Below the pieces are notes generated by a model. The model made no database searches. It was given only the letters and a program-made list of their open reading frames with translations, and had not been told where the DNA came from. Shown here one piece after another: positions 16,432 through 49,995 of a stretch of DNA of 64,000 bases (position 1 is its first letter; every line of letters begins with the position of its first letter). Source of the DNA: Methanobacteriota archaeon (GTDB lineage: Archaea; Thermoplasmatota; E2; DHVEG-1); NCBI GenBank assembly GCA_026394495.1, contig JAPKYE010000012.1, forward strand, positions 83 to 64,082, written 5' to 3'. Position numbers and translations under genes: made by a program.

Positions 16432-16700
16432 AACAAACTCCCCCGAAAGCCTTTTAAACCTTTCGATATGCTTTGCCGGACAATACAAGAACTTATATAT
16501 AAATGTTGTGGTGCCTATAATTTTGCTCAAAAATCATCTTTTTTCTCCTATAAAATTACAATAAAATAGGCAATGATAAAATGAACAATCTATTTATACC
16601 ATGAGATCTCGCATATACAAAAAAATATTTTTACTCACCACAACCGATCTTGATGAATAAGAACATATTAAAGCAACGATGTTTTTTCGAAAACGACCAT

Positions 16701-25151: not shown

Positions 25152-25165
25152 AGAGGTTTGGGAAT

Positions 25166-25537
25166 ATGAAAAAGATTATGATGGTGGATGATAACGTTGA
25201 TCTGACCTATGTGGTTAAAAAAAGTTTAGAAAAGATGGAAAACGGATGTGAGGTCATTAGTGCGAATCGTGGCCAAGAATGTTTTGATTTATTGAAAGAA
25301 GGTAAATTACCTGATCTCATATTATTAGATATTATGATGCCTGAAATGAACGGATGGGATGTATTTGCAAAATTGAAAGAAAACACAGAATGGAGAAAAA
25401 TCCCTATAGTGTTTCTAACAGCGAAGACAGATTCGTTAAGTAAAGGGTTTGGACAGATACCTGCACAGGATTATATTGAAAAACCATTTGAAATTGCAGA
25501 TTTGAAAAAGAGAATCGATACGATATTGGGAAAATAG
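25166..25537 (+). CDS. Stand-alone response regulator receiver
   Basis: MVDDN, ILLDIMMPEMNGWD, FLTAK, EKPF; no output domain. Confidence 0.93.
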   Translation: MKKIMMVDDNVDLTYVVKKSLEKMENGCEVISANRGQECFDLLKEGKLPDLILLDIMMPEMNGWDVFAKLKENTEWRKIPIVFLTAKTDSLSKGFGQIPAQDYIEKPFEIADLKKRIDTILGK

Positions 25538-25540
25538 AAT

Positions 25541-26764
25541 ATGTCTCTATCAGAAAACTCTGAGCTCGTTCGATATTTACTACAGGCGTTTGTGTCGGTA
25601 GTTGGTAGACGAACTTCTGAAAATTTTGCAATGGTAACACTAGATACCATTGTCAAACAACTTGAACCAAAATATAATTTTTTAAAATTTATTGAGATAA
25701 ATCCTTCCCGATATTCTGACGGAAAGGATGCCATTAGTATTAATCCAGAAATAAATAGCATTAGACCGAGTGATTTAGGGGAAGCATTAAACGAAATTCT
25801 TGATAGAGGAACTGAGTCATTAGATAAAAAAACAGATCATTATGTTAAGAGAGAAATTAAAGATGCACTTGGATCCATGTATGAATTAATAAATAAGAAA
25901 CTAGAATTAAATCTCCATGTTACGCAGTCTGAATATTTAGTCGATGCAGATGTACGAAGAATAATACCAGGAATTGTTCAGATAAAAAATTCTGAGGTAG
26001 TGGAACCTGTTTTAGGTGTGTTGATTAATTTATTGAATGGAGAATTTTCAGAAGCAGATGTAATGAAAACTATGATTACTTTTATCAAAAACCTTGAAGG
26101 GAAATATGATTTTTTAAAATATATCGAAATATCAGATTCACCTGATTCAGACGGCTTTTTTGTCGTTAGAGCTAGGCCTGAAATAGATGATGTTTTGACC
26201 ATTACATTTCGTGAAGCAATGCAGAAACTTATAGAAGAAATCGGTAAATCAACTCATCTGAAGACCCAGCTATCTTTTATAAAAGATTTCAAAATGGCAC
26301 TAGCGCCTGCAGATCTTGAAAAGATCAAAGAGATGAATATAAATCTGGATCAAATAGGTGAAATATTGCACCGTCGGGAAAATGAACTACTCTTTAAAAA
26401 AGCGTTGGACGCGATAGTGGGGGTAGTGAGTAGGAAGACATCAAAAAGTTTCGCAGTTGCGTTATTAGATACTATCATTGAAAAACTAAGGGATGGGCAC
26501 AAAGTTTTAAGATATGTTGTAATAAATAAATCTCGATATGCTGATGGTATTGATTCTATTTGTATCCTTCCGGAAGTAAACTCTGTTACATCATACGAAC
26601 TCGGTAAAGGATTAAAAGAAATACTCAAAAAAACACGCGAGAATCTTGGTTATAAACACACTTCATTTATTGAGGATTTCCAAAAACAACTTGGAGATGA
26701 GTATCTTGCAGAGATCGAAAAAATGGGAGTTAATCTGTATATGATAGAACTAAAATTTATTTGA
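25541..26764 (+). CDS. Hypothetical protein with three tandem ~130-aa repeats
   Basis: 407-aa ORF starting 3 bp after the receiver stop; repeats KYNFLKFIEI..DG..INPEIN / KYDFLKYIEI..DG..ARPEID / HKVLRYVVI..DG..ILPEVN. Confidence 0.85.
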   Translation: MSLSENSELVRYLLQAFVSVVGRRTSENFAMVTLDTIVKQLEPKYNFLKFIEINPSRYSDGKDAISINPEINSIRPSDLGEALNEILDRGTESLDKKTDHYVKREIKDALGSMYELINKKLELNLHVTQSEYLVDADVRRIIPGIVQIKNSEVVEPVLGVLINLLNGEFSEADVMKTMITFIKNLEGKYDFLKYIEISDSPDSDGFFVVRARPEIDDVLTITFREAMQKLIEEIGKSTHLKTQLSFIKDFKMALAPADLEKIKEMNINLDQIGEILHRRENELLFKKALDAIVGVVSRKTSKSFAVALLDTIIEKLRDGHKVLRYVVINKSRYADGIDSICILPEVNSVTSYELGKGLKEILKKTRENLGYKHTSFIEDFQKQLGDEYLAEIEKMGVNLYMIELKFI

Positions 26765-26831
26765 TATCTCTTAAAACTCAGGACAACCACCTGGAGAAAA
26801 ACCTGAAACATGCCGGGTCTAACAGATTTTT

Positions 26832-26855
26832 GTGCTGGGTGTAGGCCGTAAGCCT
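26832..26855 (+). repeat. Direct repeat, copy 1, flanking the beta-helix gene
   Basis: GTGCTGGGTGTAGGCCGTAAGCCT; 21 of 24 aligned positions match 28796-28818. Confidence 0.65.
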
Positions 26856-26910
26856 CTTTGCAACAGGAGAAAAACACAATATTTTCTGTAAATGCAAGAC
26901 AGAAGAAACA

Positions 26911-28629
26911 TTACATTTTAACCTGTTTTTTTCGTTTCCAAAAAAATATGAGTGCTACGATACAAAGAGTAAGGACTTCGATAAGTAATATTATAAAAAA
27001 TTCAAGATGCGATTGATTCAAAGTTGGTACTGTATATTCTCCTCGAATATTTACATGATTGCCTTCGAAAACATTATCGTAATAACTATTATTTAATGAA
27101 CGGGCGGGGTGGATCCCGAACTCATTATTAACAAGAGTATTTCTATAGACTGTGTTGTTATTTGAGTAATCCCACAAACAAATACCGTAATATGAATTTG
27201 CAATATTGTTCGATGTAATAGTATTGTCTGATGAGAATCCTAATTGTATACCAACAGTTACGTTCGTAATAGTAAGGTTTTGAATGAGGAACCTAGAACA
27301 GTTTGCAAGAATGACTTGACCTGCACTGTAGGGAACTGTTATATTATCTTGGCGATTTTTATAATAATAAATTGTCTTTCCATTAAGTGAATTATTTTCA
27401 ATAGTATGACTATTCCATTGATCAATTGAACTTCCCAATATATATAGCCCACTTGATGTAAAGAAATTATTATTGATCTCGTTTTCAATTGAATATTCAA
27501 TAAATATTCCCTCATAATTGTTAAGAAAATCATTTTTCAATATAACGTTCTTCGAAGAATTATCTTTCAATCGAATTCCTCGGCAATTATCTGTAAAATT
27601 ATTTTCCTGAATGATGTTTTCATTAGAATGAATCAGAAGGATACCACTGCATTTATTATTTTTAAAAATATTCTTTTCAACAATATTTTTATTTGAATTT
27701 ATCAAATCTAAACCTGGACCGGGACATGTTGCATTTATAATTGTATTATAAGAAATAGTGTTATCCGTACAAAGTTCATTTAACATTATCTCGACATGTT
27801 CGCTATTTAAAAAAGTATTGTTATACAAAGTATTATTAGTTGATTTAAATAAATAGAGAGAACCCCAACTCACATTTGTAATGTCATTAGAAGAAATATT
27901 GTTATATAATGAAAAACCCAATTGAATGCCGACATCACTATCAAATATTATAAGGTTTTGAATGAGACAATGAGAACAATTTGCAAGAATCACTTGTCCT
28001 GCGTCAGAAGGAACAGATATACTTTGTATATTTTTGAAATAGTAGATTGGTTTATTGTTAACAAAATTGTTATTTATGTTGTGGCTATTCCATTGGGATA
28101 ATGTATCTCCCCAGATACTGATTCCGCATGAAAAGAGAGCGTTATTTATAATTTCAGTTGTTGAAGAATTATCCAACGTAATACCATTAGAACAATTTTT
28201 TATGAAATTTCTATATAGACCCGTATAATTTGATTCGACATCAATACCTGCGTCCATCCATTTATTAATTCCACTATTTTGAATAGTAAAACCTGTTACA
28301 TTTGCATTATCTGCAGAAATAGAAATGATGTCTCCGTATCCGTTTCCATCTATAATCGTATTATTTCTATCTTCACCAATTAGTGATATCGATTTATTTA
28401 TCACAATATTTTCAGAATATTTTCCATTATAAACATAAACTATATTGCCAGGAGATGATGCATTTATTGCCTCCTGAATTTTGCTAAAATTAGCATTTCC
28501 AATTCCTCCAACATAAAGGATATTTGTTTCTGCTGCTTTGCAATTTTTGAAAGGTAAAAAAATAGAAAAAACACTTAATATCAATATACTAAGAATACCT
28601 ATTGTTGTAATTTTTTTCACAATTATCAT
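26911..28629 (-). CDS. Secreted, membrane-anchored NosD/CASH right-handed beta-helix protein
   Basis: Signal peptide, LYVGG...FSKIQEAINA, IVYVYNGKYSENIVINKSISLIGE, Asn-rich PbH1 repeats, C-terminal TM plus KRKK. Confidence 0.88.
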   Translation of the reverse strand: MIIVKKITTIGILSILILSVFSIFLPFKNCKAAETNILYVGGIGNANFSKIQEAINASSPGNIVYVYNGKYSENIVINKSISLIGEDRNNTIIDGNGYGDIISISADNANVTGFTIQNSGINKWMDAGIDVESNYTGLYRNFIKNCSNGITLDNSSTTEIINNALFSCGISIWGDTLSQWNSHNINNNFVNNKPIYYFKNIQSISVPSDAGQVILANCSHCLIQNLIIFDSDVGIQLGFSLYNNISSNDITNVSWGSLYLFKSTNNTLYNNTFLNSEHVEIMLNELCTDNTISYNTIINATCPGPGLDLINSNKNIVEKNIFKNNKCSGILLIHSNENIIQENNFTDNCRGIRLKDNSSKNVILKNDFLNNYEGIFIEYSIENEINNNFFTSSGLYILGSSIDQWNSHTIENNSLNGKTIYYYKNRQDNITVPYSAGQVILANCSRFLIQNLTITNVTVGIQLGFSSDNTITSNNIANSYYGICLWDYSNNNTVYRNTLVNNEFGIHPARSLNNSYYDNVFEGNHVNIRGEYTVPTLNQSHLEFFIILLIEVLTLCIVALIFFWKRKKQVKM

Positions 28630-33004: not shown

Positions 33005-33550
33005 ATGATGAAGGAAATCGAAGTGAAAATACTAGATATCAACAGAAACAAATGTGAAAAAACATTAATTTCTCTTGGTGCAACGAAAATCTTTGATGGA
33101 GAAATAATCACCTTCTTTTACGATTATTCTGATTCTTCAATTCAGAAAGCAAAAAACCTGTTACGTTTGCGGAAAGCTGGAGCTAAATCGTTTCTCACGT
33201 TCAAACAATATGTAAAGGATTCTCATGCAAAAGTCCGTAAAGAATTCGATGTCGAGGTCTCTGATTTTGACACAACACATATGATTTTAAAAGGCCTTGG
33301 TTTAACTGCTACATTGTCTGTAAAAAAACATCGTAGTAGCTATATTCTCGATGATGTTCACTTTGAGTTTGATCGTCATCTTGATGAATACGCATATATC
33401 CCTGATTTTTTAGAAATCGAAGCAAAAAATCTCGAGTCACTGTATCAAGCAGCTTCGCTTTTTGGGTTCAATAAAGAAGAGTGCAGACCTTGGTCATTTT
33501 TTGATGTAGCCGCATATTATGAAAAAAGGAAAAATCTCCCAACACCGTAG
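33005..33550 (+). CDS. CYTH / triphosphate tunnel metalloenzyme (CyaB-like)
   Basis: EIEVK (ExExK), LRLRK, LTFK, KHRSSY, FLEIE. Confidence 0.88.
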   Translation: MMKEIEVKILDINRNKCEKTLISLGATKIFDGEIITFFYDYSDSSIQKAKNLLRLRKAGAKSFLTFKQYVKDSHAKVRKEFDVEVSDFDTTHMILKGLGLTATLSVKKHRSSYILDDVHFEFDRHLDEYAYIPDFLEIEAKNLESLYQAASLFGFNKEECRPWSFFDVAAYYEKRKNLPTP

Positions 33551-33635
33551 CATCATAGCATAAGATATCTATGGAGGAAACCTATATTAAGCGAGGAGAA
33601 AATACAACCCCTTATCGGGAGCGTGCATGTAACCG

Positions 33636-35801
33636 ATGAATAAAGATGCGGAAGCAACTTCTAGTAGGATTCTTGATAATAACAGCGAAACTCAATTAGC
33701 AATAGAAACAGTATCACTGGATAATCCAAAGCTCTTTATCAACCGTGAACTCAGCTGGCTTTGTATGCACGAGCGGATTCTGGAAGAGGCAAACGATAAA
33801 AATAATCCGCTGTTGGAGCGTGTGAAATTTCTTGCGATCTGCGGCAGCAACCTTGACGAATTCTTCATGGTTCGTGTCTCCGGGTTGAGGCGGCAACTGA
33901 AGAAAGGTGCGTTGAAACTGCCACCTGATGGGATGACGCCATTTGAGCAGCTCACCGCAATCAGAAAAGAAGTCCTCATTCTCTTAGAAAACCATACGTT
34001 ATGCTGGAGAGATCGTTTAATCCCTGAACTAAAAGATGCAGGACTTGAAATTCTTCGCATCAGCGATCTTGAGGCAAAAAAACAAACTGCGTTGAGGCAG
34101 TACTTCGAACACAATGTTTTTCCTACGTTGACTCCTCTTGCAATGGATCCTACGCATCCGTTTCCATTCATCTCAAACCTCAGCATCAACCTTGCAGTAA
34201 TTCTAAGAGACTCAGAAAAACATGAGAAATATGCGCGGGTAAAGATTCCCACAAAACTTTTTCATCGATTTATCTTGATCCCCTCTGAAACTGAGGCGAA
34301 AACAGAGCAATCAAAACGCCAAGAGTTCGTGTTTTTCGAGGATCTTATTGCAGCAAATCTTGATATGCTTTTTCCCGGGATGGAGATCGTTGGGGTGTAC
34401 CCGTTTCGGATAACAAGAGATGCAGAAATCGATATAGTCCTTGATCAGGCTGGTGATCTTCTTACTGCGATTGAGGAGAGCATTGAGACGAGACGTGTTG
34501 GTTCTCCAGTTCGTCTTGAGGTGTCACCTGATATGCCTGAGTATCTGAGAAATTTGTTTGTGAAAAACCTTGGGCTTACCGAGGATATGGTGTATCCGTT
34601 CGATGGGCCTTTGGCGTTCATTGATTTCTGGGAGCTTCTCAATATCGTTGATCGTCCTGATATGAAAGACACCCCGTTTCTCCCATTTACTCCTATGCAG
34701 CTTTCAGAGAAAACAGATATCTTCGCTGCGGTTTCACAGAAGGATTTTGTTCTGTATCATCCGTATGATAGCTTCAACGTCCTCGTAAATCTCTTGCATC
34801 AAGCAGCTCATGATCCTGATGTACTCTCAATTATGCTTACGATGTATCGGATTGATAAAAACTCACCAGTGATAGAATCATTAAAGCAGGCGAGACAAAA
34901 CGGCAAAGCAGTGACTGCTCTTATTGAGTTAAAAGCAAAGTTTGATGAGCAGAACAATATCCAATGGGCAAAAGAACTTGAACAAGAGGGGGTCCATGTC
35001 ATCTATGGTCTTGTTCATCTGAAGGTTCATGCAAAGCTTTGTCTGGTTGTACGAAGGGAAAAAGAGGGAATTGTGCGTTATTCGCATTTGAGTTCAGGAA
35101 ACTATAATGCGGTAACCGGGAGGATTTATGGGGATATTGGTTATCTCACTGCGAATAAAACGATAGGTGAAGATGTTTCTCATTTGTTCAATGCTCTTAC
35201 CGGGTACTCTGAGAAAGCGGAGTACAAAATGCTTTTGGTAGCACCCGCGAGATTACGACAAGAGATCATTGATCGTATCGACCGGGAAATCGAGTGTTTT
35301 AAGAAAACCGGTCAGGGGTATATCGCATGGAAACTCAATGGTTTGCTTGATAAAGAAGTGATTCAGGCGTTGTATCGTGCATCGATGGCAGGAATAAAAA
35401 TCGATTTGAATGTACGGGGTTTATGTTCTCTTCGCCCTGGAATCAAAGGAATAAGTGAAAACATTACGGTTACTTCGATTGTTGGTCGTTTTCTTGAGCA
35501 TGCACGGATTTATTATTTCTGGGACAAAGGAAACGAAGAAGTGCTTCTCGGCAGTTCAGATATGATGCCAAGAAACCTTGATCGTCGCGTGGAGGTGTTG
35601 TTTCCTGTTCCTGATCAAAAAGTAAAAAAAGCAATCATTGAGATTATGCTGAAAATCCATTTGAAGGATATGATGAAAGCACGACGTCTTCTGCCTGATG
35701 GAACCTATGAGAAGATCATGCCAAACGATGAAGAGAAGAGCCTGAATTCGCAGCTTTGGCTCATTAACAACCGGGGCATTTGGCATGGCATCGAAAAGTG
35801 A
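33636..35801 (+). CDS. ppk1: Polyphosphate kinase 1
   Basis: FINRELSWL, NLDEFFMVRV, HPFPFISN, YHPYDSF, ELKAKFDE, KVHAK, SSGNYN, GRFLEHARI, RNLDRRVE. Confidence 0.96.
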   Translation: MNKDAEATSSRILDNNSETQLAIETVSLDNPKLFINRELSWLCMHERILEEANDKNNPLLERVKFLAICGSNLDEFFMVRVSGLRRQLKKGALKLPPDGMTPFEQLTAIRKEVLILLENHTLCWRDRLIPELKDAGLEILRISDLEAKKQTALRQYFEHNVFPTLTPLAMDPTHPFPFISNLSINLAVILRDSEKHEKYARVKIPTKLFHRFILIPSETEAKTEQSKRQEFVFFEDLIAANLDMLFPGMEIVGVYPFRITRDAEIDIVLDQAGDLLTAIEESIETRRVGSPVRLEVSPDMPEYLRNLFVKNLGLTEDMVYPFDGPLAFIDFWELLNIVDRPDMKDTPFLPFTPMQLSEKTDIFAAVSQKDFVLYHPYDSFNVLVNLLHQAAHDPDVLSIMLTMYRIDKNSPVIESLKQARQNGKAVTALIELKAKFDEQNNIQWAKELEQEGVHVIYGLVHLKVHAKLCLVVRREKEGIVRYSHLSSGNYNAVTGRIYGDIGYLTANKTIGEDVSHLFNALTGYSEKAEYKMLLVAPARLRQEIIDRIDREIECFKKTGQGYIAWKLNGLLDKEVIQALYRASMAGIKIDLNVRGLCSLRPGIKGISENITVTSIVGRFLEHARIYYFWDKGNEEVLLGSSDMMPRNLDRRVEVLFPVPDQKVKKAIIEIMLKIHLKDMMKARRLLPDGTYEKIMPNDEEKSLNSQLWLINNRGIWHGIEK

Positions 35802-38127
35802 TGTAGTGTATCGAACTGAGCAGTCTGGTTTCTGTGTTTTCGGTTCGAATAGTCTATCAAAGTTTGTGTACACGTTGAAAAACCAGATTGAGGGTGCGAA
35901 ACGCGGGGATGATACTGAGTATGTGCATCAGTTGCGTGTCGCATCGCGCAGAATCCGCTCGACGATGTCGATTTTCAGACCGTGTTTTCCAAAGAAGAAT
36001 TATATGCATTGGGAATCTGAAGTAAGAAACGTAACTCGTTCCCTTGGCGTTGCAAGGGATACCGATGTGCAGATTTTTTTTGTAGAAAATTATCTGAAAA
36101 ACGTTCGCAGCCAAGCAACTAGATCCGGAATTGAATATCTTTTGGCAAAGCATCGGGAACGACGAATGGTGATGCAGCCTAGAGTTATTAGTACGCTTGA
36201 GCAGCTTTTGATTTCGCAGGCACTTGATCAGATGATCGCGCAGTGTAACACGGTTCTTAGTCAGTGTGCATCAGCTGAGACTGGTTCTCTTCGATCGGTA
36301 GGAGTATTGCGTGAGGCGCAGCGTCATATTTTGAAAAGACTTCGGAATTTTATTGATATGAAAGACTGTGTCCATAGGGAAGATGCATTTCTTTTGCATC
36401 ATGAAATGCGTATTGCAGCGAAGCATCTTCGGTATACGATGGAGATATTTTGCACTTTGTATGAGGATAATCTCAAACAATATGTGTCTGTGATGAAACA
36501 ATTTCAGGATGTTCTTGGGGAGATGCATGATTGCGATGTGTGGATTGAATTTATTCCTTCGTTTATCGAAACCATGAAAAAAGAAGAGATCACATCTGAA
36601 AAAAAAGACATTGATGTTGTTTCGATGGAAAAAGCGCTCCATGTATTTCTTGATCATGTGAAAAAACGAAGGCATTTGTTGTATAGCAATTTCGTATCGA
36701 TCTGGGATGCAAATATGAAACAAAAAACATTTGATCATCTCAGCGAACAAATTAGTATCATTATGCTTTCTGTTGCGGATTCAAATCAGAAGATCGCAAT
36801 AATTGCTGATCATCATGCGAATCTTCATGCATTGACGGCGGTAATAACCGATGCAAAGAAACATGGTGCCACCATGTTTTTGAATGCTGGGGATTTTGTT
36901 GGGTTTGGTGCATTTCCTAGCGAAGTTGTTTCTCTGCTTCACACTGAAGAGGTGTTAAGTGTTATCGGTAATTATGATCAAGATGTTCTTACGCTTATAA
37001 AAAAAGAAAAAAAGAAAACAAAAAACAAGGATGAAAAGTTTCTTTCTCTTGCCTACGCTAGTAAACATCTCTCAAAAACAGATGCTTCGTTTCTTCGTTC
37101 TCTGCCACAGGAGCTTCGGTTGAAGATTGATGACAAGCGTCTTCTTGTTACGCATGAAAGTCCTAAATCTATTGATGAACATCTTCGATTAAATACTCCG
37201 ATTGATCGCATGAGCGAAATTGCTAAAACCTCATCAGCAGATGTGATTATTGTTGGTCATTCCCATCAGCCATTTGTGAGAACGATCGATGGCGTCACGT
37301 TTGTTAACCCCGGGAGTGTCGGAAGACCCGATGATGGGAACCCATCGGCGTCATATGCATTGATGACAATAAATCCCTTCTCCGTTGAATTGCTGCGAGT
37401 CTCCTATGATGTTGATGCTGCAGTGGATGCGATACGAAAACATCATCTGCCTGAACGTTTTGCCCAGATGCTTCTGCATGGTGTCTCACTTGAGGCCATT
37501 GAGGAACTAGAGCATAAACGACTGCAAGAATCAGTAAAAAGTAAGACATCGCGGCTGAAACATGTTGAGCGTTTTGCAGAGAAGTTTGCTCGAGATCTCA
37601 CCCATCCCTATCACGTGAAAAAACTTGCGTTACATTTGTTCGATGCGCTAAAAGACCTCTGTTCTCTCAATGATGATGATCGATTTATGCTTGAATGTGC
37701 AGCGATCCTTCATGACATCGGCTGGTCTCAGGGGTGGAAAGGGCATCATAAAACCTCGTTGCGTTTTATTCTCAATGACACTGCTCTTCCGTTCACGATT
37801 CGAGAAAAATATATTGTGGGTAGCATTGCCCGGTATCACCGAAAAACGTTTCCACAGCAGGCACATTACCATTTCGCAGCACTGAACTTTGATGATCAGC
37901 GCAGAGTAGAGATCCTTTCTGCGATCATGCGGCTTGCAGATGCATTGGATGCTTCGCATCATTCCGTTGTGAAAACAGTTGCGGTTCATATTGAACACGA
38001 TGAGATAACGATCCGATGTGGTCCTGAAGGGAACACGGAGCTGGAGGAACACGCAATCGACAAGAAGAAAGCATTGTTTGAGGCGGTGTTCAAAAGGAGA
38101 CTTGTGGTACTATGGAACAGAAAATAG
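35785..38127 (+). CDS. CHAD + metallophosphoesterase + Ppx-type HD fusion protein
   Basis: CHAD: VHQLRVASRRIRS, HEMRIAAKHLRY, QDVLGEMHD. MPE: IADHHAN, GDFVG, GNYD, GHSH, NPGSVG. HD: AAILHDIG, ARYHRK, RLADALD. Confidence 0.9.
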   Translation: MASKSDVVYRTEQSGFCVFGSNSLSKFVYTLKNQIEGAKRGDDTEYVHQLRVASRRIRSTMSIFRPCFPKKNYMHWESEVRNVTRSLGVARDTDVQIFFVENYLKNVRSQATRSGIEYLLAKHRERRMVMQPRVISTLEQLLISQALDQMIAQCNTVLSQCASAETGSLRSVGVLREAQRHILKRLRNFIDMKDCVHREDAFLLHHEMRIAAKHLRYTMEIFCTLYEDNLKQYVSVMKQFQDVLGEMHDCDVWIEFIPSFIETMKKEEITSEKKDIDVVSMEKALHVFLDHVKKRRHLLYSNFVSIWDANMKQKTFDHLSEQISIIMLSVADSNQKIAIIADHHANLHALTAVITDAKKHGATMFLNAGDFVGFGAFPSEVVSLLHTEEVLSVIGNYDQDVLTLIKKEKKKTKNKDEKFLSLAYASKHLSKTDASFLRSLPQELRLKIDDKRLLVTHESPKSIDEHLRLNTPIDRMSEIAKTSSADVIIVGHSHQPFVRTIDGVTFVNPGSVGRPDDGNPSASYALMTINPFSVELLRVSYDVDAAVDAIRKHHLPERFAQMLLHGVSLEAIEELEHKRLQESVKSKTSRLKHVERFAEKFARDLTHPYHVKKLALHLFDALKDLCSLNDDDRFMLECAAILHDIGWSQGWKGHHKTSLRFILNDTALPFTIREKYIVGSIARYHRKTFPQQAHYHFAALNFDDQRRVEILSAIMRLADALDASHHSVVKTVAVHIEHDEITIRCGPEGNTELEEHAIDKKKALFEAVFKRRLVVLWNRK

Positions 38128-39707
38128 TTGCACCATCGGAGAACGTTGTCGGTTTTATCGACATCGGCACAAACTCCATTCGTCTGATGCTTGTTCAGCT
38201 CACCTCAAATAGTTCATATACAGTTCTTCGTGAGGAAAAAGAAGTGGTTCGTCTCGGTGAAAGTATTTTTAAAAAAGGTTTTTTTCAGCCGGAGACAATG
38301 ACTCGTGCATTGTTGGTGTGTAAAAAATTTGTTGAGGTATCTCGTGGTTTTGGCGCCAGAGAAATTATTGCGGTTGCAACTGCAGCTGCTCGAGAAGCTA
38401 AGAATCAGAAAGAGTTTCTTGAGCGGTTGCGGGAAGAGACCACTCTTGATGTTCGTGTTGTCTCTGGTGGGGAAGAAGCGCGTCTTATATATCTTGGTGT
38501 TTCCAGTGGTGTTCATGTTGATAAGAAGATCGCGGTCTTCGTTGACATCGGTGGTGGGAGCACGGAGATCATCATCGGTGATCAATTTCAGCATTATGAT
38601 ATTGAAAGTATGGGGCTTGGTGCGATTCGTCTGACGACGTTGTTTCTTTCTGGGCGTGGAAACGGTGTTGTTTCTCCTGAGACATATGAGAAAATGAAAC
38701 GGTATGTGAAAAACAAGTTGGTTCATGTGACAGAGCGGGTGAACCCTAAAAAGCTTGATGTTGCGTTTGGGAGTTCTGGTACGATCATCAATTTGGCTGA
38801 GATTGCAAGTAAAATGTTTGAGAGAACTGAGACAAAGCAGGACATGGTTCTTCGGTATAAGGATCTGCAGAAGGTGATAGCTAAACTGTGTTCTTTGTCT
38901 GTTGCGGAGCGTCGTTTGATTCCTGGGATTAACCCGGAGCGTGCTGATATCATCATTGGTGGTGCGGTGATTATTGAGACGATCATGGAGGATTTGGAAC
39001 TCAAAGAATTGTTTGTGAGTTATCGTGATATGCGGTATGGGATGCTTGTGGATTATCTTTCTCGGCATGCAGGGTATCCGCAACATAATGAGACATCGGT
39101 GCGAAAAAGTAGTGTGCTTCGTCTAGGTCATTCCTGTAACGTAAATGAACATCATGCGAACCGGGTTGTGTCTCTTTCTCTTCAGTTGTTTGATGGTTCA
39201 AAAGCGATAAAGCTTCATGATCTGGGAGACGATGAGCGGGAGTTGTTAGAGTACGCTGCGTTTCTTCATGATATCGGTGATTTTATTTCGTTTCGTGGTC
39301 ATCATCTCCATTCCTATTATATTATCAACAACGCTGAGCTTCTTGGTTTTGATCAGACTGAGATCGGAATTATCGCTAATGTAGCCAGGTTTCATCGAAA
39401 GAAACTTCCGCGCAAGAAGGAGCCTTCGCTAATTGAGCTTGATAAACATTCGATTAAAACCGTTGTGATTCTTTCGACGTTGCTGCGTATCGCTGAGAAA
39501 CTTGACCGCAGTCATACCGATCTTGTGCAGAAGATAGAGTTTGTTTTACATGGTGAAAACAAGGTTGAGCTTTTACTTGTATGTTCGAAACAGGATTGTG
39601 AGTTTGAGCGATGGGGCGTCGAAGAGGATTCTGATGCGTTTGAAAAGGTGTTTGAGAAACGATTGTTTGTTTCTGTGATAAAAAACGAGCCGCAGATCCT
39701 AGCGTAA
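38112..39707 (+). CDS. ppx: Exopolyphosphatase Ppx/GppA with HD domain
   Basis: IDIGTNSIRL, ATAAAREAKN, SGGEEARL, DIGGGSTE, GSSGT, RADIIIGG, LHDIG. Confidence 0.95.
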   Translation: MEQKIVAPSENVVGFIDIGTNSIRLMLVQLTSNSSYTVLREEKEVVRLGESIFKKGFFQPETMTRALLVCKKFVEVSRGFGAREIIAVATAAAREAKNQKEFLERLREETTLDVRVVSGGEEARLIYLGVSSGVHVDKKIAVFVDIGGGSTEIIIGDQFQHYDIESMGLGAIRLTTLFLSGRGNGVVSPETYEKMKRYVKNKLVHVTERVNPKKLDVAFGSSGTIINLAEIASKMFERTETKQDMVLRYKDLQKVIAKLCSLSVAERRLIPGINPERADIIIGGAVIIETIMEDLELKELFVSYRDMRYGMLVDYLSRHAGYPQHNETSVRKSSVLRLGHSCNVNEHHANRVVSLSLQLFDGSKAIKLHDLGDDERELLEYAAFLHDIGDFISFRGHHLHSYYIINNAELLGFDQTEIGIIANVARFHRKKLPRKKEPSLIELDKHSIKTVVILSTLLRIAEKLDRSHTDLVQKIEFVLHGENKVELLLVCSKQDCEFERWGVEEDSDAFEKVFEKRLFVSVIKNEPQILA

Positions 39708-39772
39708 ACCACCTGAGATAATTTTATAAGTAGGAAATACGATTGATAGTTTGAACTTGGATGGGATGTTAG

Positions 39773-40393
39773 ATGGGAAAAACCGTTAAGTTAACCTTAA
39801 CGCCAACGGAAAAAAAGTTTGTGAACAAGTTAAAAGGTCCAGATCATAAAAATGCTGATGTGTTGCGAAACGCACTCTGGTTTTATGTGGAACATGCTGA
39901 GGATTCTCCGATTCATTCCGGGATGGACTCTGAAAAAACATTTCCTGTAAAAGAAAAGAATAAAGAAGCAGAGTTGTCTTCAACGCAGAATCCGCTGTTT
40001 CAGGATTATCTTGCGCATTTGAAAGATGAGATTTTTTTTCTTCGAGAGGAAAACGTAAAAAGCCAGGAGCAGAACCGTAAGTTTCAGGATAATGTTGAGG
40101 ATGAAATCAAACGTTTGCATGATTCGCAGAATCAATTGATGAATCTTGTACAACCTGTGAAAACAGTTCCAAAATCAGATCCGGTGTCCTTGGTGGATAC
40201 GGCTGTTGTTGTCTCAGAGCCTGCGGTGGTTCAATCAGATTTTCTTGATGAGATCGATCGTGTGTTAAAAGAGAGAACGACGCAGGTTGAAATCACTGGT
40301 GTTTCCGGAAAAAATAGACGTACTGGGTCGCATGAGAACAAGTTTTTTTCTGGTTTGTATTTTCTGCGGCGAAAACACGATAAATCTTTGTAA
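39773..40393 (+). CDS. Hypothetical protein: RHH-like N-terminus plus coiled coil
   Basis: KTVKLTLT (beta strand) ... ADVLRNALWFY (helix), then heptad-rich YLAHLKDEIFFLREEN...EIKRLHD. Confidence 0.65.
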   Translation: MGKTVKLTLTPTEKKFVNKLKGPDHKNADVLRNALWFYVEHAEDSPIHSGMDSEKTFPVKEKNKEAELSSTQNPLFQDYLAHLKDEIFFLREENVKSQEQNRKFQDNVEDEIKRLHDSQNQLMNLVQPVKTVPKSDPVSLVDTAVVVSEPAVVQSDFLDEIDRVLKERTTQVEITGVSGKNRRTGSHENKFFSGLYFLRRKHDKSL

Positions 40394-40457
40394 GATGCAA
40401 CATTAATATGGTTCTGATTGTTTACTGAATTTCATTGGGCGGAGGATGTGAGGATTT

Positions 40458-41300
40458 ATGGTTTATGAGAATTTGATGGTAAAACCCGAAAAAAAAATAA
40501 CGTTAAAAAAATTTGATACTGGGTACACAGATGGGTATCGAAACAAGAAAGAATCTGAAGAAAATCTTCCGCAGTATCTTCAGAAACTTCTGGATCTTCA
40601 GTATCTTCTCTACGCAGATAAACGATATGGTTTTTTGGTTATTCTTCAGGGTGTTGATGCAGCAGGTAAAGACGGCGTATTCAGAAATGTGATTACTGCG
40701 TTGAATCCTCAAGGGACAAAAGTCTGGGGTTTTGAGATACCTTCCTCAGAGGAACTTGGTCATGATTATTTGTGGAGGGTGCATCAACGACTCCCGAATC
40801 GCGGGTATATCGGTGTGTTCAACAGGTCTCATTATGAGGATGTTTTGATCGTGCGGGTGAAGAATTTGGTGCAAAAAGAGATGTGGAAAAAAAGGTATGA
40901 ACAGATCAATAATTTTGAGCAATATCTCTACGAGAACAATATTCGTATTCTGAAAATATTTCTCCATATCTCAAAACAGGAGCAGGAGAAAAGGCTTCTT
41001 GCACGACTTTTGGAGCCGCATAAGAACTGGAAGTTCTCAACTGATGATCTGGTCGAGCGGCAGTACTGGGATGAATATATGGTTGCGTATGAGGATATGC
41101 TCAATAAAACCAGTACGAAGTATGCGCCGTGGTATGTGATCCCTGCGGATAATAAATGGTTCCGTAATATTGCGGTTGCAAAAATCATGGTCGATGCTCT
41201 TCAGAAATTAAAGTTGAAATGGCCTGATCCATCTAGGGAGATCCAGAAATATATTGCGATCGCAAAGAAAACTGGGAAGCTGCCGCCAGTGCCGCAGTGA
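40458..41300 (+). CDS. ppk2: Polyphosphate kinase 2 (probably class III)
   Basis: LQGVDAAGKDG, HDYLWR, FNRSHYEDVL, ISKQEQEKRL, KNWKFS, APWYVIPADNKW. Confidence 0.94.
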   Translation: MVYENLMVKPEKKITLKKFDTGYTDGYRNKKESEENLPQYLQKLLDLQYLLYADKRYGFLVILQGVDAAGKDGVFRNVITALNPQGTKVWGFEIPSSEELGHDYLWRVHQRLPNRGYIGVFNRSHYEDVLIVRVKNLVQKEMWKKRYEQINNFEQYLYENNIRILKIFLHISKQEQEKRLLARLLEPHKNWKFSTDDLVERQYWDEYMVAYEDMLNKTSTKYAPWYVIPADNKWFRNIAVAKIMVDALQKLKLKWPDPSREIQKYIAIAKKTGKLPPVPQ

Positions 41301-41360
41301 TCATTGTTTTTTTATTTTTTGAGTTTTATTGTCGATGTGATTGTTGATATCTGAAGAAGG

Positions 41361-41840
41361 ATGGATATCTGGAGTAAAGCTCTTTTACCGGGTCATCGAT
41401 ATTCTTATGTGGATGAGAATCTCGCTGATGAAATAAAGGAGTTGAACAGGCGTATCGCTGAACTAGAAAAGATGCTGTCGATGGTCCTTGCCCCTCTTCA
41501 AAATGTGGGGAAAACAACGCAAAATTACCTTAGATTAACTGGGTTACTTCTTGATCATGGAGGTCTTACACCTGATCTTATTCTCCCGGATGTCAAAGAC
41601 CCTATATCACGGGAGATTGTCCGCGTCCTTATGAATAAAAGCGAACAAAATATCTCTCAGATCACAGATCTTGTTCGCAGTAAACGAGGTACTGCTTCTC
41701 GCAGGATTATCCGTGAAAAAATACAGGAATTAGCGGAGAAAAACGTCATTCAACAGCAGCAGAAAGGCTCAAGGACTGTCTATGGTTTGACTGAATCAGT
41801 GATAAAAAAGTGGTCACAAATGCTCGGTTTTACTTTATAG
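41361..41840 (+). CDS. Coiled-coil + winged-helix DNA-binding protein (true start may be GTG at 41409)
   Basis: EIKELNRRIAELEK coil; DPISREIVRVL, NISQITD, SRRIIREKIQEL wHTH pattern. Confidence 0.75.
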   Translation: MDIWSKALLPGHRYSYVDENLADEIKELNRRIAELEKMLSMVLAPLQNVGKTTQNYLRLTGLLLDHGGLTPDLILPDVKDPISREIVRVLMNKSEQNISQITDLVRSKRGTASRRIIREKIQELAEKNVIQQQQKGSRTVYGLTESVIKKWSQMLGFTL

Positions 41841-41890
41841 CATGACCACCGTACTATTGATTAGAAAATGTATAAAGGAGGAATAAAAAA

Positions 41891-42169
41891 ATGAGCAATC
41901 ATGAAGGAATGCCAGACCCGGAAAAGATAAAGGAAATATTGGATGTTGTCTCTGAGAAAATCCCTGGGCTTCTCAAGCAACTTAGTGAGCTTTTGTACGG
42001 TCCGAAAAGCGCGAAACAATACGCGGAAGCCGCAGCGATTTTTTACAAGGAGCTTAAAGGCGCTGGGATGACCGATGAGCAGGCTTTTGATCTCACACGA
42101 CAGTACATGTCAACATTGAACCTCGGTAATATGTTCAAGAATTTTTCTGTACACGGCAAAGACGACTAA
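41891..42169 (+). CDS. Small helical hypothetical protein
   Basis: AGGAGG Shine-Dalgarno upstream; FYKELKGAGMTDEQAFDLTRQY motif. Confidence 0.8.
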   Translation: MSNHEGMPDPEKIKEILDVVSEKIPGLLKQLSELLYGPKSAKQYAEAAAIFYKELKGAGMTDEQAFDLTRQYMSTLNLGNMFKNFSVHGKDD

Positions 42170-42189
42170 CCGCATATCCTGTAGAGAAC

Positions 42190-42450
42190 GTGATTATGGC
42201 TGAACATGGTACAGAAAAAAAGAACCCAAACATGATAAAGATGTTTGGTATGGTCCTGCCTTTACTCCCGGGGATGATCGTCCGATTCGGTGGATCATTC
42301 CTCCGTTTTAAAGGCGCTGCGAAAAAAGGTGGGTCGATTTTTCATCGTGAACTCCTCAATCAGGGGATCGATGAGGCTACTGCAGAGAAACTCACGGAAG
42401 AGTATCTTGAAGGAAGTAACCTGATGAAATATATTCAGTTTCTCAGGTGA
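42190..42450 (+). CDS. Small helical hypothetical protein, related to the upstream gene
   Basis: FHRELLNQGIDEATAEKLTEEY aligns with the motif in 41891-42169. Confidence 0.75.
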   Translation: MIMAEHGTEKKNPNMIKMFGMVLPLLPGMIVRFGGSFLRFKGAAKKGGSIFHRELLNQGIDEATAEKLTEEYLEGSNLMKYIQFLR

Positions 42451-46201: not shown

Positions 46202-46618
46202 TCATATGTTTATCTTAAATTTTGTCTTCTCAGGATTATTTCTAAAAATATCTGTAATCCACTGCTTTATATCGTCTCTAACACGGCGAAAATCATCGAT
46301 ATCTAAAGGATCAGTAAATCCTTTATGAATAATTTTTTTTCCTGGGAAAAACGGACATCCTTCTTTTGCATTATCGCATACTGTCACAACATAATCAAAG
46401 TTTTTTTCTCTGAATTCCTCCATGCTTTTTGATCGGTGTACGGAGATATCAATCCCTATTTCTTTCATCACTGTAATCGCAAACGGATGAACTGATGTTG
46501 GCAGAAGACCCGCGCTATTAACTTCATAGCGGTCTCCATAAATATTGCGAAGTAAACCTTCGGCTATCTGCGAACGAGCAGCATTATGCGTACAGAGAAA
46601 CAACACCGTCTTCTTCAT
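46202..46618 (-). CDS. arsC: Arsenate reductase ArsC (LMW-PTP fold)
   Basis: LFLCTHNAARSQIAE, SAG, TVCD...CP, DP...FRRVRD. Confidence 0.82.
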   Translation of the reverse strand: MKKTVLFLCTHNAARSQIAEGLLRNIYGDRYEVNSAGLLPTSVHPFAITVMKEIGIDISVHRSKSMEEFREKNFDYVVTVCDNAKEGCPFFPGKKIIHKGFTDPLDIDDFRRVRDDIKQWITDIFRNNPEKTKFKINI

Positions 46619-47268
46619 TATTTGATCTCTTTTCTTTTTCCAGTCACCATGTACGTGATTTGCTCAGCCATATTACAGGCATGATCCCCGCAGCGTTCCA
46701 GATATCGAGCAATCATGATATAATGCGTGCAGATTGTGATGTTTTTAGGGTCCTCCATCATATATGTGATACATTCCCTGAAAATGGAATACCTAAGTTC
46801 ATCGACATCATCATCTCGCTCAGAAAAATCTTTTAACAAGGTAAGATCACCGTTTTGAAACGCTGTAAATGCATCATGGATCATTTTGCATACAATCTCA
46901 TTCATATGAGGGATACTAATAATTTTTTTAATATGGGGCCCTGGTGCTATTTCCTTTGTCAGATTAGCAATATCTTTTCCGTATCTGCCGATTCGATCAA
47001 TGGAGATAATCATCCTCAGACAACATGCAATCGTCCGCATATCTTTTGCCATTGGTTGATACAATGCGATTAACTGCAACGCCTCCTCTTCAAGATCGAC
47101 ATTCATCTGCGCCAGCTTCTTCTTCTTAGAAAGTACCCAATCTGCCTTTTCAACATCAAGAGTTTTCAACGATTCAACAGAAGTACACAGCATCGAGGTT
47201 GCAAGATTACCCAGTTTCAACACATCTTTTTTCAATCCTTCTAATTCTGTATGGAATTTCTGTACCAT
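46618..47268 (-). CDS. phoU: Phosphate transport regulator PhoU
   Basis: YQPMAKDMR, IDRIGRY, DDDVD, LERCGDHACN. Confidence 0.93.
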   Translation of the reverse strand: MVQKFHTELEGLKKDVLKLGNLATSMLCTSVESLKTLDVEKADWVLSKKKKLAQMNVDLEEEALQLIALYQPMAKDMRTIACCLRMIISIDRIGRYGKDIANLTKEIAPGPHIKKIISIPHMNEIVCKMIHDAFTAFQNGDLTLLKDFSERDDDVDELRYSIFRECITYMMEDPKNITICTHYIMIARYLERCGDHACNMAEQITYMVTGKRKEIK

Positions 47269-47279
47269 TTTACTTTCAC

Positions 47280-48044
47280 CTATCCAAATCTCCCTGTGAT
47301 ATAATTTTCAGTAAGCTCCTCACGTGGGTTTTCAAAGATCTGTTTCGTCTCACCGTATTCAATAAGTTTTCCCAGGTACATATACGCTGCGTACTCGCTC
47401 ACCCGTGCCGCCTGCTGCATATTATGAGTAACAATAATCACCGTATAATGCTGTTTCAGATCATAGATAAGATCCTCTATTTTTGCGGTTGCAATCGGAT
47501 CAAGAGCAGAACATGGTTCATCCATGAGAATAATCTCAGGTTCAATTGCTAGCGAACGTGCAATACATAACCTCTGTTGCTGCCCACCGGAAAGACACAT
47601 CGCAGGTTCATATAACCGGTCGTGTACCTCATCCCATAATGCAGCATCATGGAGACTTTTTTCTACGAGTCTATCAAGAATTTTTTTATCATTTACCCCT
47701 TGAACCCTCGGTCCGTACGCAACATTTTCATAAATGGATTTTGGAAATGGATTTGGTTTTTGAAACACCATCCCGACCTTTTTTCGTATCTCCACTGCAT
47801 CAACCGATGGCCCGTAAATGTCGTTCTCGTTGAAAAACACCTGCCCTGTGATCCTGCAGTTATTGATCACATCGTTCATCCTGTTGAAACAACGAATAAG
47901 CGTAGATTTTCCGCATCCTGAAGGACCAATCAGTGCAGTTACCTTGTTTGATAAAATGCTAAGATTAATATCTTGAAGTACGTGTTTTTCTCCATACCAG
48001 AGGTTTAGGTTTTTTGTTGTAATGATTTCTTTTGTTTTTATCAT
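47280..48044 (-). CDS. pstB: Phosphate ABC transporter ATPase PstB
   Basis: [57 protein letters not shown]. Confidence 0.97.
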
Positions 48045-48051: not shown

Positions 48052-49995
48052 TCACCATTTCATAGTTTTTTTATAATGATTTCTTAACAGGATTGCGATC
48101 AGATAAAATCCAATGACGACAAGTAACAACACAAGGGCTGTTCCTGCTTGTTGCGCACGGGAATCTGGTACTGAGGTTGCTAGCATGTACAGATGAAATG
48201 GTAATGCATTGACTGAATCAAAAAGCGAAGAAGGAATAAAACCTGAAACGACAACTGCGGTGAACATGATCGGGGCTGTCTCGCCTGCTGCTCTGCCAAT
48301 CCCAAGGATTGCGCCAGTGAGAATACCTGGTGCTGCGGGAGGGAGAACCACTTTTTTTATCGTCTGCCATTTTGTTGCGCCAAGAGCAAGACTGCCTTCA
48401 CGTAGGATTTGCGGAACACTTTTCAATGCCTCTTCTGTTGTCCGTATGATTGTGGGAAGAATCATGAATGCAAGGGTGATCTGACCTGCAAGGAGTGAAA
48501 TACCCATTTTCAAATAAAGTACAAGAAACGCAAAACCGAACAACCCAAAGACAATCGACGGCGTCCCATTTAACAAATCTGCTCCTGCTCGAATGATTTT
48601 TGTTACTCTTCCCTCCCGTGTATATTCATTCAGGTAAATTGCTGCCCCTACACCTAAAGGCAACGCGATGAAAAGCGCACCGCCGACTAAATAAAACGTT
48701 CCGACAATCGCAGGAAAAATCCCTCCAGATCTGCCAAGGTTACTTGGCCATTCCGTGAGAAAACCCCAGTTTAATGCTCCGGCTCCGTTGAAGATAATAT
48801 ATGAAAGGATGATCCCTAAAAAAATAAGAACAAGAACGATCGCACTAAAAAGAGCGGTAAACGCAATTCGTTGAATATTTTTTGCAGAAATCTTTTTATT
48901 GAGATAATAACAAATACCAGCGACAACAAGTAATGAAATGGTGATGAGAACGCCAACAGCAACATATAATACACCAATAATTATTAGGATCATAACCCAG
49001 AAGAAATAGCGTTTTATCTTCTGATTAGTTTCATAGCGAAGTTTGAACCGTTTTTTTGATGAAGACGTATATTTCTCTTTGAGTCTGTTTAAAATTACTG
49101 TCGCGATGATATTAACAATGAGCGTGATGACCAACAGAAGAAGTGCGATGCCAAACAATGCATGGTAATGATCACTTCCGGTTGCAACCTCACCCATTTC
49201 AATTCCTAATGTCGCAGTAAGAGTTTTTATCGGCGCAAATACATTTGTAATCGGTGTCGGGATGAGTCCATAGGTTGGATTACCACAGACCATCATCACC
49301 GCCATGGTTTCACCTATGGCTCGACCCATTCCAAGAATGATCGCTGCGGTAATCCCTGAAAATGCTGAGGGGACAATGACTTTACTGATGGTTTGCCATC
49401 GTGTTGCGCTGAGTGCAAGTGAGCCTTCTTTGTATTCTTTTGGAACAGAGCTTATTGCATCTTCAGCTACGCTTGTGATTGTCGGTATCGCCATGATTCC
49501 AAGAAGGATTGATCCTGCAAGCCATGATTCTCCACTTGGTTGATTAAAACCGATGCGTAACCATGTTGTGAGTACTATTAACCCAAAAAAACCATAGACG
49601 ACGGAGGGGATACCTGCGAGTAATTCGATTGCGGGTTTTATGATTGCGCGCATTTTTGGTGAAGCGATTTCTGAGATGAAGATCGCGCTTCCAATGCTAA
49701 GAGGGATGGCGATTACCATTGCACCAAATGTAACCAGGAGAGTTCCAACGATAAGTGGAAATGCACCATAAAGCGGTGGAGTTCCGGTTGGATACCAACG
49801 GGAACCTGAGAGAAATTCCCATAGTCCAGCGGTTTGAAAAATCGAATAGCCATCTTGAAATAAAAAATATATGATTGAGAAGATAATGATAATCGATGAG
49901 ATGGCGGTGAGGAAAAAAATTGTTTTGATGCTTGTTTCTTTTATTTTTTTTAATGATATAAAAAAATGGAGGAAGCGTGGTAGTCTTCGACTCAT
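48052..49995 (-). CDS. pstCA: Fused phosphate permease PstC-PstA
   Basis: N-half [11 protein letters not shown]...[10 protein letters not shown] (PstC); C-half [14 protein letters not shown]...GRAAGETAP (PstA); one 647-aa frame. Confidence 0.92.

Follow-up and report, generated by a model that had tools for sequence, protein, structure and literature searches.

Positions 33005-41300 of the 64,000-nt stretch of archaeal contig JAPKYE010000012.1 analyzed here (the window) contain a polyphosphate (polyP) gene cluster. It consists of six same-strand (+) open reading frames (ORFs), recognized from the ORF list and Pfam matches, which encode in order a CYTH protein, the kinase PPK1, a CHAD fusion protein, PPX, a small protein designated X, and a second kinase, PPK2. 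Far from being special to the window organism, this module is widespread among archaea and is met most often in Bathyarchaeia. It is probably best understood as a conserved polyP operon whose fusion protein is a polyP-tethered phosphohydrolase, plausibly one that cuts its substrate internally, acting as a partner of PPK1 and PPX. A bolder version, in which the fusion is the first prokaryotic polyphosphatase of the metallophosphatase type, probably endo-acting and working on the granule as the translationally coupled partner of PPK1 and PPX, is tentative and on balance rather unlikely.

As a polyP operon the locus is ordinary in kind. Operons in which PPK and PPX occur together with CHAD proteins, accessory phosphatases, and Pst genes are well known (Iyer and Aravind, as cited in PMC6537752; PMC12995831). 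The novelty is the unstudied fusion enzyme at the core; no description of a CHAD-metallophosphoesterase-PPX C-terminal protein, or of such a fixed archaeal module, was found in the searchable literature. An earlier note on this DNA, made from the sequence alone, had described a Pst/PhoU-linked cluster for polyP synthesis, use, and degradation in an archaeon. The Pfam matches bear this out, with all six co-directional genes lying where it had placed them, and TFB homologs point to a member of the Thermoplasmatota. Its “CHAD fusion” is likewise present, but the note passed over what is the most interesting element of the locus, a conserved protein of three joined modules.

Architecture and conservation of the fusion protein

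The fusion protein (780 aa) is made up of a CHAD polyP-binding domain (Pfam E 1.5e-48), a dinuclear metallophosphoesterase (TIGR00040, 59.7 bits; cut-off 56.25), and PPX domains III-IV. Over its final 174 residues it shares 36% identity (E 3e-26) with the C-terminal half of PPX, the product of the next gene downstream; on this match the C-terminus is a paralog of the polyP-binding half of PPX, and the whole protein can be read as a PPX with its ASKHA catalytic half swapped for CHAD plus a dinuclear metallophosphoesterase. The AlphaFold2 (AF2) model is of good quality, with a predicted local distance difference test (pLDDT) value of 88.6 and a predicted template modeling score (pTM) of 0.71. 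In Foldseek comparisons the CHAD module matched the polyP-bound Chlorobium CHAD protein 6qva (template modeling score, TM, 0.73), the central module 3rqz, SapH (3qfm), and Pyrococcus metallophosphoesterases (TM 0.81-0.84), and the C-terminal module the PPX C-terminal fragment 3rf0 (TM 0.73) as well as domains III-IV of 1u6z. CHAD domains bind polyP (PMC6537752), and the C-terminal part of E. coli PPX is a polyP-binding domain that serves as a polyP probe (PMC11352482).

At least 683 relatives were found in a protein search. The 120 best are 769-850 aa long, reach at least 97% coverage, and have identical domain architecture; where their sources name them at all, it is only as “YfcE family phosphodiesterase,” “CHAD domain-containing protein,” or “putative phosphoesterase.” Across 35 aligned members chosen for diversity, none of the five metallophosphoesterase motifs varies (D342xH344, G369D370, G395N396xD398, H457, and H492xH494), and equally invariant are H48, R51, R55, R56, R58, H205, H206, R209, K213, R216, and H248 of the CHAD domain. 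Among the HD-type residues of the C-terminal module, H607, H643, and D719 are invariant and D644 is kept in at least 90%. One Bathyarchaeota metagenome-assembled genome (MAG) encodes fusion and PPX as a single 1,301-aa ORF (L025, 3853-7779), either a natural fusion or an assembly frameshift.

A scan of one genome per species gave 357 stretches encoding a fusion relative, and the best 72 loci were examined by tblastn with the window proteins. Most are from Bathyarchaeia, with others from Thermoplasmata/Thermoplasmatota, Methanomassiliicoccaceae, and Ca. Methanolliviera. The order CYTH-PPK1-fusion-PPX-PPK2 recurs in about 50 of the 72. PPK1 is found near the fusion in 67 loci, and directly upstream of at least 59 fusion genes; PPX is nearby in 61, PPK2 in 51 (usually on the opposite strand), and CYTH in 50. 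Phosphate uptake and sensing genes are less constant neighbors, with a true PstB (at least 50% identity) within 10 kb of the fusion in 19 loci, PhoU in 18, and AbrB-PhoU in 16. Pst genes are also reported among the typical neighbors of PPK1 and PPK2 (PMC12995831).

In the window, the 5' end of the fusion gene overlaps the end of PPK1 by 17 nt, and its 3' end overlaps the beginning of PPX by 16 nt. These are also the modal values across phyla, seen at 31/59 and 31/54 junctions, respectively. Since the modal overlaps are identical across phyla, PPK1, fusion, and PPX are likely to be translationally coupled and to have travelled as a unit, and the three appear to form an invariable core joined via these overlaps. 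Two loci are arranged differently. The Methanolliviera locus L003 reads PstS-PstCA-PstB-PhoU-PPK1-fusion, and the Thermoplasmata locus L006 reads AbrB-PhoU-PPK1-fusion-PPK2, with AbrB-PhoU directly upstream of PPK1. No PPX gene was found in the 3-10 kb sequenced downstream of the fusion in either one, and in both the fusion holds the post-PPK1 position that ppx occupies in the E. coli ppk-ppx operon.

A second fusion paralog of the same CHAD-metallophosphoesterase-PPX C-terminal type follows PPK2 in 13 of the 72 loci, just past the inverted PPK2 gene (L009-L012, L015, L016, L019, L025, L031, L032, L038, L052, and L067); almost all of these are Bathyarchaeia.

Candidate bacterial carriers were considered and set aside. 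SMAG bins assigned to Limnocylindrales, Acidoferrum, and Methylomirabilota fall inside Bathyarchaeia, with PPK1 identities of 83-87%, and are probably mis-binned, leaving no convincing bacterial example. Four soil MAG bins (L019, L033, L055, and L057, labelled Limnocylindrales, Nanoarchaeia, Acidoferrum, and Methylomirabilota) have PPK1 proteins 79-87% identical to those of Bathyarchaeia. The apparent bacterial spread of the fusion is doubtful because these soil contigs are probably mis-binned. Hundreds of archaeal genomes, among Bathyarchaeia, Thermoplasmatota, and an alkane-degrading methanogen lineage, have one fixed module with an unstudied central enzyme.

Proposed function and inheritance of the module

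Archaeal polyP metabolism is poorly known. Surveys of its enzymes list only PPK1, PPK2, PPK3, and PPX, with no endopolyphosphatase homolog in any archaeon (Paula et al., PMC6864096), and according to a recent review none is found in bacteria (PMC11352482). Polyphosphatases of the metallophosphatase fold are known from eukaryotes only. Yeast Ppn2, a PPP-superfamily metallophosphatase and an endopolyphosphatase, is a precedent for polyP cutting by this fold (PMC7381174). In Haloferax, which is without PPX, a 2026 study describes an unidentified Mn2+/Co2+-dependent polyP-degrading enzyme (PMC13318637).

In the mechanism proposed here, the dinuclear metallophosphoesterase center of the fusion would be tethered to the polymer by two modules that bind polyP independently, CHAD at the N-terminal side and the copy of PPX domains III-IV at the C-terminal side. 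The most likely substrate would be polyP itself, which is the most economical choice because two polyP-binding modules surround an intact hydrolytic center. Endo-cleavage is plausible because a processive exo-enzyme, PPX, is encoded alongside: the fusion may cut internally, or attack granule-bound or metal-complexed polymer, and so provide ends for PPX and PPK2. CYTH would clear the tri- and tetraphosphate ends that are poor PPX substrates; the linked Pst/PhoU/AbrB-PhoU unit would supply and sense phosphate; and X, perhaps along with a 159-aa protein encoded downstream, may be a lineage-specific regulator. The system as a whole might act as a buffer for phosphate and for adenylate energy charge in an anaerobe short of energy.

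If the fusion does hydrolyze polyP, it would represent a new catalytic class in prokaryotic polyP turnover, help to explain how granules become accessible to PPX and PPK2, and offer an expressible target for testing polyP as a phosphate or ATP buffer in energy-limited anaerobic archaea. As a polyphosphatase of the metallophosphatase type it would fill the reported endopolyphosphatase gap in bacteria and archaea, and it would be a candidate enzyme class for the Mn2+/Co2+-dependent, PPX-independent archaeal activity reported in 2026 without a gene. If it does not hydrolyze polyP, the cluster is still a useful, well-defined metagenomic marker for polyP potential.

The module resembles several known systems in part. 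Like the E. coli ppk-ppx operon, it encodes PPK1 and a processive four-domain PPX co-directionally, both clear homologs (E 1e-120 and 8e-52 to the E. coli structures); unlike it, the window has an archaeal host, inserts the 780-aa fusion with overlapping reading frames, and adds CYTH, PPK2, and a small putative regulator. The polyP operon of Sulfolobus acidocaldarius (SixA-PPX-PPK3 subunits-CHAD; PMC12995831) similarly combines an archaeal PPX, a polyP kinase, CHAD, and an accessory phosphatase. There, however, the kinase is the dTMPK-derived PPK3, CHAD stands alone, and the phosphatase is SixA, whereas the window encodes PPK1 and PPK2 and has CHAD joined in one protein with a metallophosphoesterase and a PPX tail. 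In E. coli YgiF, a CYTH-CHAD protein, CHAD is likewise fused to a phosphoanhydride hydrolase and is proposed to recruit or hold the polymer (PMC6537752). YgiF pairs CHAD with a TTM/CYTH tunnel enzyme for short chains, whereas in the window CYTH is a separate gene, the partner of CHAD is a calcineurin-like metallophosphoesterase, and there is a second polyP-binding module. Yeast Ppn2 and Ppn1 are polyP hydrolases of the metallophosphatase superfamily, Ppn2 being strictly endo-acting and metal-dependent (PMC7381174), but they are eukaryotic, act in the vacuolar lumen, and are without CHAD or PPX-derived domains. The likeness of the fusion to Ppn2 is assumed at the superfamily level, and the proposal is that it may work like Ppn2, not that it belongs with it.

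In both sequence and fold, the central domain is nearest to Metallophos_2 proteins of the SapH/3rqz/PF1291 type (E 1.5e-30 to 3rqz; TM 0.81-0.84), which have all of the metal motifs in common with it. Unlike the fusion they are stand-alone proteins of about 250 aa, none linked to polyP genes or fused to polyP-binding domains, and the sole characterized one acts on diadenosine tetraphosphate (Ap4A) and phosphodiesters.

Several points weigh against a polyP operon built around a polyP-cutting fusion. SapH, the nearest characterized metallophosphoesterase, is an Ap4A hydrolase/phosphodiesterase and not a polyphosphatase, and the C-terminal HD-type residues (H607, H643 D644, D719) could form a second or alternative active site. 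Endo- and exo-cleavage by the fusion are not distinguishable in its sequence. The case for an operon is built on the spacing of the genes together with a TATA-like box and a T-tract, and a DNA-binding role for X is without family-level support. The CYTH protein passes the NCBI adenylate cyclase model, by about 2 bits. Finally, Bathyarchaeia dominate the distance correlations among the module genes described below, and plain vertical descent would give the same.

The kinship with SapH also suggests that the fusion could be a granule-tethered nucleotide-polyphosphate hydrolase, acting on Ap4A, adenosine tetra- or pentaphosphate, or similar by-products of PPK1 and PPK2, with CHAD and the PPX-like tail serving for localization only. 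The closest characterized structural relative, SapH (3qfm), is an asymmetric Ap4A hydrolase, and the putative diadenosine tetraphosphatase 2qjc is a further match. Class III PPK2 enzymes, moreover, can over-phosphorylate nucleotides. Two polyP-binding modules flanking the catalytic domain are nonetheless more than localization needs; the fusion also comes after PPK1 in loci without an adjacent PPX, some of which (L003) are without an adjacent PPK2 as well; and the best match in both sequence and structure, 3rqz, is itself uncharacterized. A nucleotide substrate is considered unlikely, and polyP is preferred.

A separate question is how the cluster came to be in this genome. The earlier note had raised possible acquisition as a block, and a recent block acquisition, as opposed to an old lineage resident, would fit two observations: published trees show archaeal PPKs repeatedly gained from bacteria (PMC12995831), and gene order and overlap lengths are common to Thermoproteota (Bathyarchaeia), Thermoplasmatota, and Halobacteriota (Methanolliviera), which implies block transfer between phyla at some time. 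The window itself shows no sign of recent import. The guanine plus cytosine (GC) content of the cluster is 0.40-0.43, and both GC and GC at third codon positions (GC3) match those of the TFB, fibrillarin, and other window genes, so that recent horizontal transfer detectable by composition is ruled out. No integrase, tRNA, or repeat boundary was found as a mobile-element hallmark at the cluster. Neighbor-joining trees for each of PPK1, fusion, and PPX join the window first to a JGI metagenome contig (L075) and then to other Thermoplasmatota, apart from Bathyarchaeia; this contig has the identical six-gene order, including X, at only 59-78% identity. Pairwise distance matrices of PPK1, fusion, PPX, PPK2, and CYTH correlate, with Spearman coefficients of 0.76-0.95. 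The genes are thus linked in relatives and the three core trees agree, with neither discordant origins nor loss of linkage to argue against a common history. Because the core trees agree and follow host taxonomy, and GC is native, the cluster appears to be an old block-inherited module, and recent import is improbable. The presence of the module in three archaeal phyla implies an ancient block transfer, which is consistent with the patchy distribution of archaeal PPKs shaped by horizontal gene transfer (PMC12995831, PMC6864096).

The other genes of the cluster

Coordinates of the cluster and of the phosphate genes beyond it are collected in Table 1. The domain matches behind these assignments are strong and not attributable to chance.

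Table 1. Features of the polyP cluster and the linked phosphate genes, in window coordinates.
Feature	Position	Strand	Evidence and remarks
TATA-like box TTATATAA	32974..32981	+	Centered ~27 nt upstream of CYTH ATG; direct sequence reading
CYTH	33005-33550	+	Pfam CYTH E 7e-17
PPK1	33636-35801	+	Four PPK1 Pfam domains, E 1e-36 to 1e-71
Fusion, 780 aa	35785-38127	+	CHAD aa 30-257, Metallophos_2 aa 336-529, Ppx-GppA domain III/HD aa 590-739
PPX	38112-39707	+	Pfam Ppx-GppA E 1e-60 and domain III E 3e-34
X, 206 aa	39773-40393	+	No family match
PPK2, single domain	40458-41300	+	Pfam PPK2 E 1e-72
T-rich tract TCATTGTTTTTTTATTTTTTGAGTTTTATTG	41301..41335	+	Directly 3' of PPK2 stop; direct sequence reading
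ArsC-like LMWPc, thioredoxin type	46202-46618	-	Pfam LMWPc; CX5R, Cys81/Cys88; end of pst operon
PhoU	46618-47268	-	Pfam PhoU; end of pst operon
PstB	47280-48044	-	Pfam
Fused PstC/A permease	48052-49995	-	Pfam
PstS	50067-50945	-	Pfam; matches solved PstS proteins
AbrB/MazE-PhoU fusion	51083-52090	+	Pfam MazE_antitoxin and PhoU; divergent from pstS

PPK1 scores 833 bits against TIGR03705 (cut-off 466), has all four Pfam domains (N, head, C1, and C2), and matches the solved PPK1 structures 2o8r and 1xdo at E 1e-121. The histidine motif KVHAK of the C1 domain is kept, with “hlkvhakl” aligned to “glkvhakt” of 2o8r. By homology, it is an enzyme that makes polyP from ATP.

That histidine bears on another possible role for the neighboring fusion, as a regulatory protein phosphatase that would remove the phosphohistidine of PPK1, or phosphate from some other phosphoprotein, at the granule and so throttle polyP synthesis, as has been suggested for SixA-type phosphatases. 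PPK1 neighborhoods often hold the phosphohistidine phosphatase SixA (PMC12995831), and in the module a phosphoesterase fills the slot beside PPK1 and is translationally coupled to it. The calcineurin-like family also includes protein phosphatases, and lambda phosphatase (1g5b) is among the weaker fold matches. The domain in question, however, falls in the YfcE/MJ0936/SapH branch of small-molecule phosphodiesterases (Metallophos_2, TIGR00040) and not among the PPP protein phosphatases, which makes this role very unlikely in comparison with polyP hydrolysis.

PPX is colinear over aa 13-475 with Deinococcus radiodurans PPX (8jgo, E 1.7e-59) and matches E. coli PPX (1u6z) at 8e-52, and is of the four-domain type found also in E. 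coli. The alignment shows the motifs DIGGGSTE and GGEEA. Its scores are below the NCBIfam equivalog cut-offs (268 against 307 bits for TIGR03706, and 206 against 864 for NF008108), making it a divergent member of the PPX/GppA family. Homology marks it as a long-form PPX that removes terminal phosphates, in a family where sequence does not separate PPX from GppA specificity.

PPK2 has a single PPK2 domain in 280 aa, with the Walker A motif GVDAAGKDG. Its top PDB matches are all class III enzymes (5lc9, 6au0/6an9, and 5o6k; 271-273 bits, E ~1e-80), compared with only 89-109 bits for the class I enzymes 5llf and 3czq. It scores 380 bits against TIGR03709 (cut-off 247), and 327 bits against the NCBIfam ADP-polyP phosphotransferase equivalog, under its cut-off of 450. 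Being by far closest to class III enzymes, it would be expected to carry out polyP-driven conversion of AMP to ADP to ATP, and is assigned by homology as class III-like, with polyP-dependent phosphorylation of both AMP and ADP.

CYTH begins MMKEIEVK, which contains the ExExK motif. Only the start at 33005 retains EIEVK; the shorter automatic gene call in L001 drops the motif. Among solved proteins it matches SaTTM best (7ns8, E 5.5e-10), with Pyrococcus CYTH proteins next. SaTTM is a triphosphatase (PPPi-ase) without cyclase activity, and it and the Pyrococcus CYTH proteins belong to an archaeal cluster (cluster 3), while true class IV CyaB cyclases form a small cluster found only in bacteria (PMC8233210). 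The earlier suggestion of a tripolyphosphatase is the better reading, given the nearest solved relative, the ExExK motif, and the triphosphatases of the archaeal cluster (PMC8233210); CYTH is probably an inorganic tri- and short-chain polyphosphatase. The NCBIfam name, class IV adenylate cyclase, is probably a misnomer, because SaTTM is without cyclase activity and the CyaB cluster is bacteria-only. That CYTH is nonetheless such a cyclase, making a cyclic AMP signal that controls the cluster, is the least likely of the alternatives considered: it passes the TIGR00318 cyaB equivalog cut-off (60.1 against 57.95 bits), but the solved structures nearest to it are those of SaTTM and the Pyrococcus members of the archaeal TTM cluster, SaTTM is a PPPi-ase with no cyclase activity and the CyaB cluster is small and purely bacterial (PMC8233210), and CYTH is conserved at the head of the polyP operon in 50/72 loci.

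Protein X had no Pfam, NCBIfam, or PDB sequence match. A word-indexed search gave seven close homologs, and an exhaustive hidden Markov model scan gave 20 relatives among 1.84 billion representatives. X and its relatives have in common the N-terminal pattern MGKTIALKLT..EE.IV..LN..GI.NSELLR.ALW.YF, with a conserved strand-helix-helix-like motif (MGKTVKLTLTPTEKKFV...NADVLRNALWFYVEH), and a coiled coil. The latter is long (aa 74-125) and modelled by AF2 at >90, in a model that is poor overall (58.5). The long form (~195-211 aa) occupies the same slot between PPX and PPK2 in L075, at 40% identity. A strand-helix-G-x-N-helix pattern, kept in 16 sequences, is the sole hint of a ribbon-helix-helix fold. 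X was not accepted as a recognized member of that group: no ribbon-helix-helix family appeared at E<=10, where Pfam gave only coiled-coil noise, no PDB match was found, and the AF2 pLDDT of 58.5 is too low for comparison of folds. X is lineage-restricted and, with low confidence, may be a small DNA-binding regulator.

The X family is small and unnamed, with about 20 representative sequences, and one short relative comes from SRR20698646, the same sample as the window. Short relatives (130-165 aa; L078 8001-8474, L076, L077, and L079) occur in archaeal genomes away from polyP genes. A general link of such short proteins to polyP was rejected, the L078 context being unrelated and L076, L077, and L079 too short or unrelated.

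The TATA-like box upstream of CYTH suggests that the cluster is transcribed from a promoter of its own, giving a leaderless or near-leaderless transcript. A second TATA-like box lies upstream of X, and a strong Shine-Dalgarno-like GGAGG precedes PPK2, both from reading of the sequence. The T-rich tract is likely to be an oligo-T terminator of the archaeal kind, at which the operon ends. Together these signals suggest one unit from 33005 to about 41335, with possible internal promoters. Counts from a sigma-70 promoter and intrinsic-terminator scan were equal to those for shuffled sequence (promoters, 23 vs 20.7 expected), but these are bacterial models and not applicable to archaea.

Flanking phosphate genes and other features of the window

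The Pst genes, two PhoU genes, and ArsC noted earlier were located by Pfam 5-11 kb downstream of the cluster. PstB, the fused PstC/A permease, and PstS are, by their domain content, a high-affinity phosphate uptake system, and the AbrB/MazE-PhoU protein is a probable phosphate-responsive DNA-binding regulator. The ArsC-like protein has a CTHNAARS motif (CX5R) and a C81/C88 pair as in thioredoxin-coupled ArsC, and scores under the cut-offs of the NCBIfam ArsC models. Compared with most solved PstS proteins, the one in the window (50067-50945, -) is seemingly circularly permuted, with residues 180-290 resembling their N-terminal half and 40-180 their C-terminal half; the permuted topology is already represented, as the window protein is colinear with the solved “PstS 2” 4h1x.

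The polyP and Pst modules are separated by about 5 kb of unrelated genes (41.3-46.2 kb: MGMT-like, DUF1801, RibD_C, “bacterial hydrolase,” and DUF3795). Just 3' of the putative PPK2 terminator are three small co-directional ORFs (41361-42450, +) of 159, 92, and 86 aa without family matches. The first has sub-threshold winged-helix matches. The other two are apparent mutual paralogs, with relatives that adjoin polyP clusters in L066 (Methanomassiliicoccaceae) and L068 (Thermoplasmatales). Upstream of the polyP cluster are the hydrogenase maturation genes HycI, HypE, and HypF.

Fibrillarin, TFB, and PAC2 are encoded in the window, which marks the host as archaeal. TFB shares 82-89% identity with proteins from named Thermoplasmata, Thermoplasmatales, and Thermoplasmatota MAGs, and the host is, judging from these proteins, an uncultured Thermoplasmata archaeon. 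Window proteins are also present in the Logan assembly of SRR20698646. No rRNA or tRNA genes were found in the window by Rfam and tRNA scans.

Other features are unconnected with phosphate. At 351 aa from a TTG start, the TFB ORF (15475-16530, -) exceeds its homologs (311-318 aa) by about 35 aa, and its true start is probably internal. GC is 0.29-0.33 at 23421-28629, compared with 0.40-0.45 elsewhere; this low-GC island may be foreign DNA, and encodes a PAS histidine kinase, a receiver-only response regulator, a 407-aa protein of no known family, and a NosD-like beta-helix protein. Finally, a frame at 60258-64000 (+) stays open past the end of the window, with a likely first Met at ~60279, and encodes at least 1,240 aa with an N-terminal hydrophobic segment, probably a large secreted or surface protein.

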